A stretch of DNA of 64,000 nucleotides from Escherichia coli (GCF_045037415.1 NZ_CP173438.1); one strand, 5' to 3'; shown: positions 4,412-60,957, numbered from the stretch's first letter. A program made the numbers and translations. Notes: generated by a model not told the origin, from the sequence alone.

Positions 4412-5926
<1,515 letters not shown>

Positions 5927-6132
5927 CTAACATTTGCTGTTATTTTGCACGGTTTTTGTCGGGTATGGATTTGATGATTGCTGCGCAAATGCACGCTTTC
6001 AGGGCAATAATTGCCTGATTTTTGGGCAAGATAATTAACGTTTTCGTATAGTAACAGAGTGAAAGTATTTTAAATCAAGGAATTAGATTTGTGCTTTAAT
6101 CGCAAATTGCGATCTAAATCAAATTAATTGGT

Positions 6133-8479: not shown

Positions 8480-8723
8480 TTAGATATATCTAATTTATAT
8501 CTGATATGAGCATTACTGCAAGTACAAAAATGATTTTTAAACGCAGGTTTACTCAACATGTAGGCCGGATAAGGCGTTCACGCCGCATCCGGCATTGAGC
8601 AATGATGCTTGATAAGAGGTTGCGCGTCTTATCAGACTACAGATATATCAGTGCTACAAATCACTTGCATTTATCATGATTAACAATCATTATCATTTGT
8701 GGAATTTATTTAGATATATCTGA
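8480..8723. promoter_or_regulatory. Divergent yqjI/yqjH control region: three AGATATATC operator-like motifs, embedded REP unit, Fur box
   Basis: Perfect palindrome TTAGATATATCTAA near 8480-8493, related copies near 8639-8650 and 8710-8723; Fur-box-like ATGATTAACAATCATTATCATT near 8676-8697; REP sequence GTAGGCCGGATAAGGCGTTCACGCCGCATCCGGCA near 8560-8594. Confidence 0.6.
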
Positions 8724-53764: not shown

Positions 53765-55906
53765 TCAAAATTCCATTTTCACCGTGAATTGCACTTCACG
53801 CGGATCGCCAATCTGATTCCCCAGATTATTTGTGGCGATGGAAGAGGTGTAATACGTTTTATCAAACAGGTTTTTGACGTTTAATTGCAGTGTGACCGGA
53901 TACTGCAATTTCATTTTGTATGCGGCGAAGGCATCGGCAACAAAATAGCCTGGCAGATAATAGTCAGCCCCATTGGTTGCCGAACGACGGCTTACACCAT
54001 GTCCACCACCGCCAAATGTCAGCGTATTATTGCCTGGCATGTTATGAATATCATAGGTCAGGAATAGCGAACCGGTATGACGAGGAACATTCGGCAATGG
54101 TTTCCCTGCATAATCAGGATCCTCCAGAACCTTAGCATCGGTATAGCCGTAGCTGGCAATGATATTAATGTTTTCAGTTAATGCTCCCGCAAGGTCGACT
54201 TCTACCCCTCTTGAACGAACACGGCCTGCCGTTTTGGCGATGGTTTCATCACCAATACTTTCGGTATACAACACATTACGTTTATGGATATCAAACAGCG
54301 CAATATCTGCGGTGATACCATCGAATAGCTCGAATTTTGCCCCGACTTCGTAAGCATTAGATGATTCCGGTGGAAGATCGCCAATGTAGCTGGCAATTGA
54401 CGACTGCGGCATAAATGTTTGCGAATAATTGGCAAATAAGGATACCGATGGCGTCAGTTTGTAGACCAACCCCAGTTTGGGAGTCCATTGTTCATCGCGG
54501 CTGTCAGTATTGACATTAAAAGGACGGCCTTTACCCGCATACTGCGTGTAATACTGATAGCGGATCCCGGCGACGGCAATCCAGTTATCGGTCAGATAGA
54601 GTGCGTCCTGTGCATACGCTGAGTAGCTCTCCTGTTTGATCGTCTGATCACTGTCCGACGCCGAAACCGTTGTACATTTGCTGGTATTACCATAAACAGG
54701 GTTGTAAATATTGAAATCTTTAGCTTTTTTACAGCGAATCATATCTGTACGCAGAAGATCATAATATTCATATGACACCCCACCCAGAATCTCATTATAG
54801 AATCCGGCAATATCAACATTCCCTTGCAGATCCGCACGAGTAGCATGCATACGCTGGGTAGAGCCCTGAGTTGCATCAACACGCCGTGTCAGTGTTCCTG
54901 TCGTTGCATCATATGCGGTAACACGCGCCTGATTATCGCTGTATTTATCCTGGCTGTAGCTGTAATCAAAGCGTGCTGTCCACTGGCTATTGAGATGATA
55001 TTCTGCGTTGAGTTGCGCCAGATCGGACTGACCATCTGTAATATTAAACGGTTCGTCAAAACGTATTTTTCGATCAACGTTTACGGGCTGTTTCGTCGTA
55101 AGGTCGAAAATCGTTCCACGATCGAACGGAGTTTTATAGTCCCGATGGGAATAGAGCATGGTTACTGTTGCATTATCACCAAACCATGTGAGTGACGGGG
55201 CAATAAATGTACTGCGCTCTTTACCGAAGTTTCGCCAGTAATCTTCATCCTGCACTTCCCCGGTAAGGCGATACGCCAGCTGAGTGCCTTCAATGGGACC
55301 TGTGATATCAAGTTGCCCAGTGCCGCCACCAAAACTGGAGGAGGTGGCTGAAACCGAACCATGGAATGTTTTTTCCGGGCGCTTGGTCACGACGTTAATC
55401 AGTCCGCCAGGATCGAGAATGCCATACAGCGTGGAGGCCGGGCCTTTTAGCACTTCCACACGTTCTGTGGCGGCGTTGAAACTGCGAGGAAGTACGGTTC
55501 GCAGACCGTTGGTCATGATGGAGCCATCCCGGTTTGCGCCAAACCCACGGCGTACAAAGGCGTCCTGAGTTCCGCCTAATGTATTGGTCTGTACCACGTT
55601 ACTGACGTTATAAAGCGCCTCATCCAGCGTTGTCGCATTCTGGTTTTCCAGAACCTGATCGCTAACCGTATTGACCACCTGCGGGATATCCAGCATCGGC
55701 ATATCGGTTAATGTCGCCGTAGAGGTGCTCAGAGGTTGATAACCATCGGTTGCCTCAGTTGCGGTATTTGCATCTGCTGTAACAGTGATTGTTTCGCCAT
55801 CTTTGGTCGTTACAGAGTCTGTTGCATGAATCATCGGTGCCGCAAAAAGCAGTGAAAAGAGCGCCCGACCTTTGAGTCCTGAGAATGAAGGTGTGAACAT
55901 AGCCAT
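53765..55906 (-). CDS. fitA: TonB-dependent outer membrane siderophore receptor (fit-like)
   Basis: 713 aa ORF with signal peptide, TonB-box-like ETITVTA, plug and 22-strand barrel character, terminal aromatic residue; symbol is a tentative family assignment. Confidence 0.8.
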   Translation of the reverse strand: MAMFTPSFSGLKGRALFSLLFAAPMIHATDSVTTKDGETITVTADANTATEATDGYQPLSTSTATLTDMPMLDIPQVVNTVSDQVLENQNATTLDEALYNVSNVVQTNTLGGTQDAFVRRGFGANRDGSIMTNGLRTVLPRSFNAATERVEVLKGPASTLYGILDPGGLINVVTKRPEKTFHGSVSATSSSFGGGTGQLDITGPIEGTQLAYRLTGEVQDEDYWRNFGKERSTFIAPSLTWFGDNATVTMLYSHRDYKTPFDRGTIFDLTTKQPVNVDRKIRFDEPFNITDGQSDLAQLNAEYHLNSQWTARFDYSYSQDKYSDNQARVTAYDATTGTLTRRVDATQGSTQRMHATRADLQGNVDIAGFYNEILGGVSYEYYDLLRTDMIRCKKAKDFNIYNPVYGNTSKCTTVSASDSDQTIKQESYSAYAQDALYLTDNWIAVAGIRYQYYTQYAGKGRPFNVNTDSRDEQWTPKLGLVYKLTPSVSLFANYSQTFMPQSSIASYIGDLPPESSNAYEVGAKFELFDGITADIALFDIHKRNVLYTESIGDETIAKTAGRVRSRGVEVDLAGALTENINIIASYGYTDAKVLEDPDYAGKPLPNVPRHTGSLFLTYDIHNMPGNNTLTFGGGGHGVSRRSATNGADYYLPGYFVADAFAAYKMKLQYPVTLQLNVKNLFDKTYYTSSIATNNLGNQIGDPREVQFTVKMEF

Positions 55907-56279
55907 TTAGTCTGTTATCCCAAAAACTCGCGGATTGTCGCGAGTGAAAATTGTTTCTTATTGCTCACTAAGCACTATCCGTTTGTTATTTCGCCATCGG
56001 ATATGTAATTGAGAATCATTCAATCACGCAGTAATGTAGTAGTAAATGAGAAATAACAAAAAATTGCTACATGTGTTTTTATGAAAGGTTTATACAATTT
56101 GATTGCTTTTAATTTATTGATATTTAATGTTTTTATTTTTATGTATAAAAATATTTTACCTGTTATTTACCTTGTTTTTGTGTGGCTTTTAACTGCTTGA
56201 CTACTACATTTTGTGGCGTCAAACTCTCAAAGGAGAATGAGTTTTATTTTTGTTTGTCTTTGATTAAGTTGGCGTACAC
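55907..56279. promoter_or_regulatory. AT-rich divergent promoter region of the iron-uptake locus with candidate Fur box
   Basis: Between divergent receptor and ABC transporter genes; AATTGAGAATCATTCAAT resembles the Fur consensus GATAATGATAATCATTATC. Confidence 0.4.
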
Positions 56280-57089
56280 GTGGCACATAACGCAAAAGGG
56301 CAGGGGCTGATCCTCGACAATGTTTCTGCCGGGTATCACAAGAAAATCATTGTTGATGGTGTTTCTTTCTCCGTTCCCACAGAAAAAATGACCGTTCTGG
56401 TTGGGGCAAACGGCTGTGGAAAGTCGACGTTGCTCAGCACCATTGCACGTATCTTGCAACCTATGGGCGGTTCGATATTGCTTGATGGCAAAGCGATTCA
56501 CGAGCAACCAACGAAAGCGTTATCCCGTAGACTTGGGATCTTGCCGCAGTCGCCATTATTGCCGGAGGGCTTAACCGTTTATGAACTGGTGTCGCGTGGG
56601 CGTTTTCCCTGGCAAAATTTCATACGTCAATGGAGCGACGCCGATGAGCAGGCGGTGGAAGAGGCCCTGAAATTAACCGGTACGCAGGAGTTTGCACATT
56701 TACCTGTTGAAAAACTCTCTGGTGGGCAGCGCCAGCGTTGCTGGATTGCGATGGTGTTGGCGCAAAAGACGCCTTATATCCTGCTGGATGAACCCACAAC
56801 CTGGCTTGATTTACGTTATCAGGTTGAAATTCTTGAGTTATTACATGATTTAACGCGTCATCACGGGCGTACAGTCGTCGTGGTGTTGCATGATCTGAAT
56901 TTTGCCGTCAATTATGGCGATACGTTGATATTTTTACGCCAGGGGAAAGTGGTGCGTGTGTTGAATGAGGGGGAGCATTGCACGCCTGAACTGGTAAAAG
57001 CTGTCTTTGACGTTGATGTTCACGCATCAATAAATCCTCTGACGGGAAAGCCGTTCTTCATGCCGTTTCGTGGTGTAGAAAAAGTATGA
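56280..57089 (+). CDS. ABC transporter ATP-binding protein (iron-siderophore type)
   Basis: 269 aa ORF, GTG start, Walker A GANGCGKST, ABC signature LSGGQRQR, Walker B ILLDEP. Confidence 0.85.
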   Translation: MAHNAKGQGLILDNVSAGYHKKIIVDGVSFSVPTEKMTVLVGANGCGKSTLLSTIARILQPMGGSILLDGKAIHEQPTKALSRRLGILPQSPLLPEGLTVYELVSRGRFPWQNFIRQWSDADEQAVEEALKLTGTQEFAHLPVEKLSGGQRQRCWIAMVLAQKTPYILLDEPTTWLDLRYQVEILELLHDLTRHHGRTVVVVLHDLNFAVNYGDTLIFLRQGKVVRVLNEGEHCTPELVKAVFDVDVHASINPLTGKPFFMPFRGVEKV

Positions 57090-59125: not shown

Positions 59126-60073
59126 ATGCGTTTATTTTTTTCTCTGCTGATACTGTTGTCATTTTTTTCCCGTGCAACAGAACCTGTTCAGGTATTTACT
59201 GATGATTTAGGGCGCAAAGTCACTGTTCCTGCTCATCCAAAGAGAATTGTCTCTTTACACGATCTTGATATCACTATTCCTCTGATTGAGCTCGGTGTAC
59301 CTCCTGTCGCCAGCCACGGGCGAACTCGGCCTGACGGTAGCCATTTCATTCGATCTGGCGCGTTATTGACAGGTGTCGACTTTGATAATTCATCGATCGC
59401 CTTTATTGGTACCGCTGATATTGATATTGAAGCGATTGTGGCGGCAAAGCCTGACTTGATCATCACAGAACCGACCCGTAATACGCCCATTGAACAACTT
59501 GAAAAAATTGCGCCCACGGTGAGCATTGATCATCTCAAAGGGGGCGCGCCAGAAATCTATCGCAAGCTGGCAGAACTTACAGGAACGCAGTCGCAGCTGG
59601 CGATACTTGAACGCCGCTATCAGGCACAAATCAATGCGCTGAAGGCGACGCTGGACAGCCAAAAAATAACGGTATCGGTGATTCAGGCAAACCAGGGAAA
59701 AATTAATGTGATGCATAGCTATCATTCGCTGGGACGGGTATTACGCGATGCTGGTTTTCGTTTTCCGCCGCTGATTGAGAGCATTCCTGAAGGTGGGCGA
59801 ATGGATGTGAGCGCGGAGCGTTTACCTGAACTGGATGCCGATTTTGTTTTTGCAACCTGGCGCGGTGACACCGGTGGTAAACCTCAGGATGAGCTGGCAG
59901 CAATGGAAAAAGTCATGCCGGGATGGTGTCAGTTTCTGACTGCCTGTCGTTCCGGGCGTTATGTGCTGATTTCTCGTGAAGAGGCAATTTCTAACTCCTT
60001 TGCATCTCTGGGGCTGATGGCTGCGCAGATACAATCACAAATTGCAGGGCGACCTCTACCGGAGGCTAAATGA
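59126..60073 (+). CDS. Periplasmic siderophore-binding protein (class III substrate-binding protein)
   Basis: Track ORF starts at 59063; signal peptide MRLFFSLLILLSFFSRA begins at codon 22, preceded by an SD. Confidence 0.8.
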   Translation: MRLFFSLLILLSFFSRATEPVQVFTDDLGRKVTVPAHPKRIVSLHDLDITIPLIELGVPPVASHGRTRPDGSHFIRSGALLTGVDFDNSSIAFIGTADIDIEAIVAAKPDLIITEPTRNTPIEQLEKIAPTVSIDHLKGGAPEIYRKLAELTGTQSQLAILERRYQAQINALKATLDSQKITVSVIQANQGKINVMHSYHSLGRVLRDAGFRFPPLIESIPEGGRMDVSAERLPELDADFVFATWRGDTGGKPQDELAAMEKVMPGWCQFLTACRSGRYVLISREEAISNSFASLGLMAAQIQSQIAGRPLPEAK

Positions 60074-60957
60074 TCCAGAAAGATAAAGTGCGGGTTGATA
60101 TTTTTGGTGAGCGTTTTCGCACTCGCGCGAGTCAGTTAACGCCTGGGTTAAGAGTTGTCGCCAGCTACATTAATGAGCATCGTGAAGTGGTACTCGAGCA
60201 AACGGCGATGGAAATTGCGGCCACGTTGAACACTTCCGATGCCACAGTTATCAGGGCTATACAGGCCCTGGGGTTTGCCGGGCTGCGTGATCTGAAACGC
60301 ACTCTGGAACAGTGGCTTGGTCCAGCCCTTAGTTCCAGCGAAAAGATGTCTACGACGGTGAGTAACTTGACGAGCGATGTTAACACCGCAATCGACTTTG
60401 TTCTTGAAGGGCATTTGTATACCTGTAATGTCCTGTCAGAGCCTGAAAACCGCCACGCGCTTGCGCAAGCTGTAGCGTTGTTGGTGCAGGCACGGCAAGT
60501 CGCAATTTTTGGCATTGGCGCTTCGGGTATTCTGGCGGACTATACCGCACGACTATTCAACCGCATAGGTTTGCCTGCCACGGCACTAAACCGTACGGGT
60601 ATTGGCCTTGCCGAGCAACTGATCGCGCTTCAACGTGGCGATGTTCTGATCATGATGGCGCAAAAATCTGCGCACCGGGAAGGGCTGACAACGCTTCGTG
60701 AGGCGAGGCGGCTGGGGATCCCTGTTATTTTGCTGACAAACGCGCTGGATTCACGTTTTAGCAAAGACGCCAGTATCGTGATTCATGTTCCGCGCGGGGA
60801 TGAAAAAGGGAAAACGCCGCTACATGGTACGGTATTGTTGTGTCTGGAAATGATTGTCTGGTCGGTAGCTTCCGCAGTGCCGCAGCGTGCGGTTAAAACC
60901 ATTAAGCGAATTAACGATTTCCATCGAGGACTGAAAACGGGAAGAAAGAATGGCTAA
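60070..60957 (+). CDS. fitR: RpiR-family transcriptional regulator (N-terminal HTH plus SIS sugar-phosphate-binding domain)
   Basis: 295 aa ORF; HTH_6-like N-terminus and SIS-type GIGASG fold; start overlaps the binding-protein gene stop; symbol is a tentative family assignment. Confidence 0.8.
   Translation: MIQKDKVRVDIFGERFRTRASQLTPGLRVVASYINEHREVVLEQTAMEIAATLNTSDATVIRAIQALGFAGLRDLKRTLEQWLGPALSSSEKMSTTVSNLTSDVNTAIDFVLEGHLYTCNVLSEPENRHALAQAVALLVQARQVAIFGIGASGILADYTARLFNRIGLPATALNRTGIGLAEQLIALQRGDVLIMMAQKSAHREGLTTLREARRLGIPVILLTNALDSRFSKDASIVIHVPRGDEKGKTPLHGTVLLCLEMIVWSVASAVPQRAVKTIKRINDFHRGLKTGRKNG

Follow-up and report, generated by a model that had tools for sequence, protein, structure and literature searches.

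How can a gap of fewer than four hundred base pairs serve a siderophore receptor gene on one side and a transport operon on the other, so that both respond to iron and to a regulator of their own? The question is raised by positions 55,907 to 56,279 of a 64,000-nucleotide stretch of Escherichia coli DNA, referred to below as the window. This interval is the bidirectional promoter and operator region of fit, an E. coli island for the uptake of iron-siderophores, and as such is already known. An earlier note, made from the sequence alone, had described it as an AT-rich divergent control region for a receptor gene and an ATP-binding cassette (ABC) operon, with a weak candidate box for the iron regulator Fur and possible operators for an RpiR-family protein. 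The regulation has been published and no new biology is claimed here; what is new is a base-level map of the region, which is inferred. As a whole, the interpretation developed below, a bidirectional fit promoter repressed by Fur and by the local regulator FitR through a predicted set of operators, is considered very probable.

Identity of the Locus

In strain CFT073, c3775 and c3774-c3770 correspond to fitA and fitBCDE-fitR, and the pathway has been named Fit (PMC7157518). The spacer between c3775 and c3774 is 99% identical to that of the window, with two differing positions and no indels, and this identity, the Pfam architecture of the encoded proteins and the RefSeq annotation all agree. 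Because gene content, gene order, the position on the parE side (fit lies between parE and ygiN on the E. coli chromosome) and the spacer identity match, the locus is assigned to the fit system. At the level of the feature it does not differ from the E. coli fit locus described by Ouyang & Isaacson (2006, 2008; CFT073 c3770-c3775). With 373 bp and 30% G+C, the spacer also answers to the length of about 370 bp and the AT-richness given in the earlier note.

Of 5426 complete E. coli genomes, 1870 match a 3.5-kb query around the spacer with 95-100% identity. About one complete genome in three thus has the island, uropathogenic, enteroaggregative and O157 strains among them, and it represents one of several redundant iron-uptake systems.

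Published Regulation of Both Directions

Fusions of the spacer to lacZ are active in both orientations, which bears out the earlier claim that it drives the receptor gene as well as the ABC operon, and their activity is about 3- to 4-fold higher under iron starvation (PMC2593036). Both fusions are repressed by FitR overexpression and derepressed by fitR knockout, and expression of fitA rises 23-fold in a fur mutant, 2.2-fold in a mutant of fitR, and 52-fold when fur and fitR are both mutated (PMC2593036). In CFT073, RNA sequencing of a fur mutant gave increases of 7.0-fold for c3775 and 5.7-fold for c3774 (Banerjee et al. 2020, PMC7157518). On these literature data, repression of the neighboring genes depends on Fur and on iron, and FitR represses both directions independently of Fur and more weakly than Fur does.

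Purified FitR shifts a 347-bp intergenic fragment when assayed by electrophoretic mobility shift (EMSA), with specific competition (PMC2593036). An operator for the RpiR-type regulator within the spacer, as the earlier note had supposed, is thus supported by binding and by repression in both directions. The same note had called iron control plausible but not evident; the control is real, and the wording proves too cautious, since lacZ fusions, the fur mutant and chromatin immunoprecipitation (ChIP) had already established it. Iron-dependent reporter expression and Fur binding, on which it had made its reading depend, were likewise both present in published data. Ouyang & Isaacson (2008) did not identify the exact Fur and FitR sites and performed their EMSA with the whole 347-bp fragment (PMC2593036); relative to the published fit work, the operator-level map presented here is a prediction.

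Fur Occupancy at Two Conserved Boxes

Sequencing of Fur ChIP DNA (ChIP-seq) from CFT073 placed summits at 3607979 (height 2720, c3775) and 3607777 (height 2545, c3774), where the heights for fepA, cirA and fhuF were 3285, 3050 and 5300, respectively (PMC7157518). Fur ChIP with exonuclease treatment (ChIP-exo) gave peaks at 3607758-70 and 3607968-80 in CFT073, three peaks in strain 042 (3539587-99, 3539695-707 and 3539800-12), and two peaks separated by 211 bp in strain Sakai (Gao et al. 2023, Nucleic Acids Research). These positions were transferred linearly to the window, the CFT073 and 042 spacers both measuring 373 bp with no indels relative to it. The Sakai coordinates disagree with NC_002695.2, presumably because of the assembly version, and for this strain the 211-bp separation alone was used.

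In window coordinates, the two ChIP-seq summits are at 56017 and 56219; the ChIP-exo peaks are at 56016-56028 and 56226-56238 for CFT073, and at 56016-56028, 56121-56133 and 56229-56241 for 042. Fur therefore sits in vivo at two positions about 210 bp apart. The published positions coincide with two boxes, A1 (56005-56023) and B2 (56230-56254), so that both are occupied in vivo. Box A1 contains the sequence singled out in the earlier note, AATTGAGAATCATTCAAT, at 56007-56024, and the summit at 56017 is the central C of the GAATCATTC palindrome within it.

Conservation was followed with a scan for FitA in one genome per species, which yielded 39 orthologous loci, all with a divergent fitB, and hence 40 sequences including the window. 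The genera represented are Escherichia, Enterobacter, Lelliottia, Silvania, Huaxiibacter, Citrobacter, Kosakonia, Kluyvera, Yokenella, Erwinia, Pantoea and Affinibrenneria. Most of the spacer DNA cannot be aligned across genera, and only a few blocks are near-invariant, namely A1, B2 and two 12-mers, A2 and B1, treated in the next section. Across orthologs, A1 lies anywhere between 98 and 250 bp from the fitA ATG, and B2 between 27 and 92 bp from the start of fitB. Because A1 is conserved across orthologs and lies under ChIP-seq and ChIP-exo peaks, it is regarded as a functional Fur site.

To judge the boxes by their sequence, a Fur matrix was trained de novo on the 60 bp to each side of 17 strong CFT073 ChIP-seq summits, with fit and iroN excluded. 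The matrix recovered the classical Fur box AATGATAATTATTATCATT (20 bits), its training sites score 17-30 bits, and the median distance from summit to site in the 17 training peaks is about 10 bp. As a positive control, the strongest match of the window, ATTAACAATCATTATCATT (22.9 bits, 8679-8697), lies in the nfeF/nfeR region, within a stretch annotated aer, ygjG, nfeF (yqjH), nfeR (yqjI) and mug; the ChIP-exo tables list a yqjH Fur peak in all three strains (Gao et al. 2023).

By this measure A1 is inconspicuous. It agrees with the 19-bp consensus GATAATGATAATCATTATC at 12 of 19 positions and scores 2.9-4.6 bits, and in shuffled spacers at least 12 of 19 is reached by 73% and at least 4 bits by 86%, which places the box at chance level; the earlier description of a merely partial match was accurate. 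The matrix scan that the note had recommended also brought out what it had missed, the better box B2, which scores 14.1 bits at 56230-56248 on the minus strand, agrees with the consensus at 13 of 19 positions and ranks fourth in the 64-kb window. Its score is reached by 5% of shuffled spacers and falls short of the training sites with their 17-30 bits. Shifted by 6 bp, a second register that overlaps it (56236-56254, plus strand) gives 10.0 bits. A1 indicates that strong occupancy and deep conservation are possible for a Fur site that scores at chance on the matrix, and a motif scan would miss it.

Putative Promoters and Candidate FitR Operators

The arrangement of conserved bases around the boxes points to two weak sigma-70 promoters placed back to back, with their -35 elements 150 bp apart, fitA being read leftward and fitBCDE-fitR rightward (Table 1). 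The fitA promoter is proposed from its geometry and from the invariance of its bases across the 40 sequences. For fitB, the putative -10 hexamer lies 17 bp past TTGACT and takes the form CAwnAT in other genera, and GCAAAnTC is conserved. Promoters of this weakness would fit the modest expression reported. At each of them, a Fur box would cover the -10 element and the start site.

The two 12-mers, A2 (TGTAGTAGTAAA) and B1 (TTGACTACTACA), join these promoters to what may be the binding sites of FitR. They are reverse complements of each other but for one base, and they are the sole matches to TTKACTACTACA in the 64-kb window. Within them, TGTAGT at 56035-40 and ACTACA at 56203-08 are the half-sites known from RccR, a tetrameric Pseudomonas repressor of the RpiR family that binds TGTAGT/ACTACA with spacers of 3 or 16 bp. 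The fit region shares this hexamer pair with RccR/HexR-type operators (TGTAGT-N3-ACTACA or TGTAGT-N16-ACTACA; PDB 8JU9), and it has TGTAGTAGT in common with the P. aeruginosa aceA site of RccR. FitR resembles RccR in its HTH_6+SIS architecture, and the RccR tetramer tolerates two half-site spacings.

Related hexamers recur at 31 bp on either side of TGTAGT, the upstream one lying inside A1. The downstream nCTACA site is an exact ACTACA in 15 of the 29 sequences that have it, and Kluyvera, Yokenella, Erwinia and Pantoea lack it. Over the 40 spacers (16.8 kb), exact TGTAGT or ACTACA hexamers number 111, where about 8 would be expected. Because of the hexamer match to RccR, the fixed offsets, the hexamer excess and the presence of fitR in each operon checked, A2, B1 and the sites at 31 bp on either side are rated as likely FitR operators, by analogy with RccR. 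The gene closes the operon also in Erwinia, Affinibrenneria and Kluyvera, that is, in every operon checked.

Table 1. Genes, promoters, boxes and conserved blocks at the fit locus, in window coordinates.
Feature	Position	Strand	Basis and remarks
fitA, TonB-dependent receptor	53765-55906	-	Open reading frame (ORF) and Pfam; ATG at 55906
fitA-fitB intergenic spacer	55907-56279	both directions	ORFs and Pfam; 373 bp, 30% G+C
fitB, ABC ATPase	56280-57089	+	ORF and Pfam; GTG start at 56280
fitC and fitD, two FecCD permeases	after fitB	+	Pfam
fitE, Peripla_BP_2 binding protein	after the permeases	+	Pfam
fitR, HTH_6+SIS (RpiR-family) regulator	60070-60957	+	Pfam; last gene of fitBCDE-fitR
Predicted fitA 5' leader, about 105 nt	55907-56011	-	Hairpin P1 55976-56003; motif 55960-55968; hairpin P2 55926-55945, before the ribosome-binding region
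TGTAAT, half-site-like hexamer	56004-56009	+	Exactly 31 bp upstream of TGTAGT, inside A1; offset -31 in 36/40
Fur box A1, core GAGAATCATTC	56005-56023		ChIP-seq summit 56017; ChIP-exo 56016-56028 in CFT073 and 042
Block A1, AATTGAGAATCATTCAA	56007-56023		0 mismatches in 35/39 orthologs
Putative fitA promoter	56018-56046	-	-35 TTTACT 56046-56041; 17-bp spacer; TG 56026-56025; -10 TTGAAT 56023-56018; start ~56011
A2, TGTAGTAGTAAA	56035-56046	+	Candidate FitR half-site TGTAGT joined to the fitA -35; identical in all 40 sequences; constant 11-bp distance to A1
GCTACA, degenerate inverted half-site	56066-56071	+	Exactly 31 bp downstream of TGTAGT; nCTACA at +30/+31 in 29/40
Central conserved element, TAATTTATTGATATTTAATG...	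56110-56134		Possible third weak Fur site, IHF-like bend site, or both
B1, TTGACTACTACA	56197-56208	+	fitB -35 TTGACT fused to inverted candidate half-site ACTACA; 0 mismatches in 40/40
Putative fitB promoter	56197-56202 (-35 TTGACT); 56220-56225 (-10 CAAACT)	+	Start ~56232
Fur box B2, AAGGAGAATGAGTTTTATTTTTGTT	56230-56254		Top Fur matrix match of the spacer; ChIP-exo 56226-38 (CFT073) and 56229-41 (042); summit 56219
Block B2, GAGAATGAGTTTTATTT	56233-56249		0-4 mismatches; 13-22 bits in 39/39 orthologs

Spacer Geometry and a Possible Nucleoprotein Complex

A2 and B1 stand 149-151 bp apart in the group of Escherichia, Enterobacter and Lelliottia and 171-173 bp apart in all other genera, and this spacing is kept although the intervening DNA cannot be aligned. 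Such a length lock, together with a difference of about two helical turns between the classes, suggests that both halves of the promoter region function together in a single complex. Between the window and one Citrobacter locus, the arms on the two sides of the center differ by +10 and +12 bp.

Near that center lies a conserved element, TTTAAnnnnTTGAAAAT, at 56108-56124. Its segment TAATTTATTGATA (56110-56122) is an exact reverse-complement match to WATCAANNNNTTR, the consensus of integration host factor (IHF), and in about 30 of the 40 sequences, from both length classes, a match with at most one mismatch lies at nearly the same place, a few bp at most from an offset of about -6 relative to the A2/B1 midpoint. 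The Fur matrix scores 9.1 bits at 56116-56134, and the middle ChIP-exo peak of strain 042 (P110) covers 56121-56133.

These elements can be assembled into a mechanism. Fur-Fe2+ on A1 and B2 would block RNA polymerase at both promoters, and iron repression of each direction would depend on its own Fur box, with the core GAGAATCATTC in A1 and GAGAATGAG as its counterpart; a change of GAGAATCATTC to GAGCCTCAGGC would then be predicted to abolish iron repression of one direction. FitR bound to TGTAGTAGTAAA and TTGACTACTACA would overlap both -35 hexamers. The fixed spacing and the central element would let the two halves act as a single nucleoprotein complex, possibly a FitR-bridged loop, with either a third Fur site or an IHF-type bend at its center. 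Such a loop is the most attractive reading of the spacing and is advanced here tentatively. A wider version of the idea, equally conjectural, holds that the region is an ancient length-locked complex and not two independent promoters, in which a tetrameric FitR bridge would span the central bend or Fur site, Fur would cap the start sites, and the two-hairpin leader of the fitA mRNA would pair through its conserved motif with the RyhB seed. If the bridge exists, both promoters would be shut at once, by operators 150 or 172 bp apart, two spacings that differ by two helical turns.

Weighing the Alternatives

That A1 might be no Fur site of any kind, a chance AT-rich resemblance devoid of function, would accord with the 73% of shuffled spacers that offer an equally good consensus match. 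This null explanation is refuted by conservation and by the ChIP data, a 17-mer identical in 35 of the 39 loci, from ten genera, amid unalignable flanks and Fur peaks on the box in the two mapped strains, and it is given almost no credence. A more serious proposal accepts the conservation and assigns it elsewhere: A1 would not be the primary Fur operator, its ChIP signal would arise indirectly, by cooperative spreading or by looping and cross-linking to Fur at B2 or at the center, and the bases would be kept for the fitA -10, the extended -10, the start site and the FitR-type TGTAAT half-site. Its low matrix score invites this view, as does a near-perfect invariance unlike that of B2, which drifts by up to 4 mismatches yet stays Fur-like, and so does the presence of TGTAAT at exactly 31 bp from TGTAGT. 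Against it, independent ChIP-seq and ChIP-exo data sets show a separate peak within about 10 bp of A1, roughly equal in height to the one at B2, from which 200-213 bp separate it, and the resolution of ChIP-exo speaks against simple bleed-through. Moreover, A1 holds a recognizable Fur core, GAGAAT-C-ATTC, with matrix registers at 56002 and 56008, a 6-bp step typical of hexamer arrays. This indirect-signal explanation is accordingly judged improbable, and A1 is retained as a Fur site.

The candidate FitR operators face a different objection. Each 12-mer opens with a good -35 hexamer (TTGACT or TTTACT), the link from the RccR half-site to FitR is one of family resemblance, and the published FitR EMSA is not at the level of sites; A2 and B1 could thus be promoter elements, a -35 with adjacent spacer, or the target of another regulator such as a HexR-like housekeeping RpiR protein. 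A -35 alone, however, needs no six further bases invariant across ten genera, and those six bases are exactly TGTAGT or ACTACA, inverted at the two promoters. Copies of the hexamer recur at fixed distances of 31 bp in both directions and far exceed expectation (111 exact copies against 8 in 16.8 kb), and FitR is encoded in all operons checked and binds the fragment in the published EMSA. On balance it is unlikely that the 12-mers are something other than FitR operators. For the central element, the competing view is an IHF site that would bend the spacer so that the promoter halves meet, in place of a Fur site. The exact consensus match, the offset conserved in about 30 of 40 sequences and arm changes of roughly one helical turn each, in the window compared with one Citrobacter locus, favor it; yet the sole experimental datum at the element is the Fur ChIP-exo peak of 042, Fur-like matrix matches of 9-19 bits overlap it in several genera, IHF consensus matches are frequent in AT-rich DNA, and most orthologs read TTGAA and not TTGAT. 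An exclusive IHF role, proposed from the sequence, is possible but doubtful.

Several observations weigh against the combined Fur and FitR interpretation. A1 is poor by sequence, and its invariance could stem from its overlap with the -10 element, the start site and the TGTAAT half-site. The coverage of -10 and start site by Fur boxes is deduced from geometry, the promoter hexamers are weak (8 of 12 for fitA, and CAAACT as the fitB -10), and a scan of 55850-56350 for consensus promoters and terminators found nothing. The central Fur peak is reported in strain 042 only. FitR repression is modest, 2- to 5-fold (PMC2593036), and the assignment of FitR to TGTAGT draws on family resemblance. FitR has RccR (8JU9) among its closest solved relatives, yet the two are distant, with an E value of about 1e-15, about as for NanR. 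In addition, what separates the inverted half-sites of fit is 25 bp (56041-56065) or about 156/178 bp and not 3 or 16 bp, and therefore the region is filed as sharing the RccR half-site only, not as an RccR-type site.

Untranslated Leaders and Operon Variants

The transcript of fitA would begin with a structured leader. The pairs of hairpin P1 covary, with double-sided changes in 10, 4, 9 and 2 sequences (for example AU:16/GC:10 and CG:17/UA:9). Hairpin P2 is found in nearly all orthologs, with a stem sequence unrelated between genera, and in strain 042 it carries the compensatory pair G55930A/C55941T (CUCGCG/CGCGAG to CUCACG/CGUGAG), as it does in Escherichia sp. MOD1-EC7003. An alignment of leaders with MAFFT and RNAalifold yields P1 only, P2 being misaligned because its sequence is genus-specific, so each sequence was instead folded separately and given a z-score; the means over 39 leaders are -1.6 for P1 and -1.4 for P2. 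An Rfam scan of the spacer gave no credible family, its one sub-threshold match to a plant microRNA being taken as noise. P2 was also considered as an intrinsic terminator or attenuator, UUUUUGGG following it in E. coli; this was rejected, a terminator scan finding none and the U-run being absent in Erwinia and Pantoea.

Between the hairpins lies a conserved single-stranded motif, which reads GGGCAAUGA in most genera and, at 55960-55968 of the window, GUGAGCAAU. The E. coli form is perfectly complementary to the seed AUUGCUCAC of the small RNA RyhB, and GGGCAAUG of other genera pairs with CAUUGCUC. In CFT073, deletion of ryhB in addition to fur lowers the increase of c3775 from 7.0- to 4.0-fold, and the known target cirA shows a comparable drop (PMC7157518). 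The energy of the RyhB duplex is no better than that of dinucleotide shuffles (p ~0.25) or of 3194 background windows. Pairing of RyhB with the fitA leader is thus a speculative lead and not a finding; if real, it would let iron act on fitA after transcription as well, in the manner known for cirA.

On the other side of the spacer, fitB in E. coli and Enterobacter has a GTG start without a clear Shine-Dalgarno sequence (window 56265-56282). In Citrobacter, Kosakonia, Erwinia and Pantoea the start is ATG, preceded by GGAG, and these four genera also carry an additional GC-rich, hairpin-prone segment of 30-60 nt in the fitB 5' untranslated region, which has been lost in the Escherichia group. 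A mini-ORF at 56237-56263 (ATG AGT TTT ATT TTT GTT TGT CTT TGA, encoding MSFIFVCL) behind AAGGAG was considered as a leader peptide and rejected. The Shine-Dalgarno-like AAGGAG is only 1 nt from the ATG and is cut by the predicted transcription start (~56232), the frame has 8, 6 or 4 codons depending on the genus, and its conservation is explained by Fur box B2.

The operon itself exists in two forms. In Erwinia sp. JUb26 and Affinibrenneria salicis, three more genes stand between the binding-protein gene and fitR, encoding a PepSY_TM protein (siderophore-reductase-like) and two PBP_like_2 proteins, and E. coli and Kluyvera have the short form. The additional genes could be a clue to the substrate or to what FitR senses.

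Other Fur Signals in the Window and in the Source Data

Besides the spacer and the nfeF/nfeR region, the matrix marks further places in the window. A match of 19.0 bits, TTTGATATTTATTACCAAT, lies at 62257-62275 on the minus strand, about 80 bp into an Hcp-family gene (62179-62658) beside mdaB, and could be a sign that Fur controls a type VI secretion cluster; at its mapped coordinate, where the mapping may not hold, CFT073 shows no ChIP-seq peak. Another of 16.7 bits, AATGCTATTTGCTAACATT, lies at 5916-5934 in the aer / ygjG region. The CFT073 ChIP-seq listing has no peaks at the mapped positions of the other matrix matches of the window, linear mapping being likely to fail far from fit.

Within fitA, the ChIP-exo peaks P125 of CFT073 and P112 of 042 coincide at about 54411-54424, and a separate matrix match of 11.4 bits is present at 54754-54772. 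In the source data, the iroN summit of Table S5 (1198978; PMC7157518) lies within the RefSeq iroN coding sequence (1198162-1200339), about 800 bp in, and is either a typing error or a real intragenic site; the other summits checked are all upstream of genes.

Comparison with Known Systems

The kind of system remains what earlier work had described, a Fur-repressed siderophore-uptake promoter with an extra local repressor. To this picture, the present analysis adds that A1 is real, occupied and conserved, that a second box, B2, accompanies it, and that a predicted set of FitR operators, a conserved spacer geometry and a structured leader can be placed on the same few hundred bases.

Among classical Fur promoters, fepA-fes, fepDGC-entS and chuA-chuT are organized like fit, with AT-rich spacers that part a TonB-dependent receptor gene or a transport operon from a divergent partner, Fur boxes on the promoter cores and strong ChIP peaks. 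The fit boxes are weaker than those of these promoters, at less than 5 and 14 bits compared with 17-30 bits, and derepression in fur mutants is about 6- to 23-fold, compared with hundreds-fold for ent; fit, in turn, adds a locus-specific repressor. A nearer counterpart is present in the same window, where nfeF (yqjH) and nfeR (yqjI) form an iron-related divergent pair with the strong Fur box that served as positive control. This pair is also under dual control, by Fur and by a local repressor. It differs from fit in that its local repressor belongs to another family and senses another signal, and in that it is a core-genome locus and not an island.

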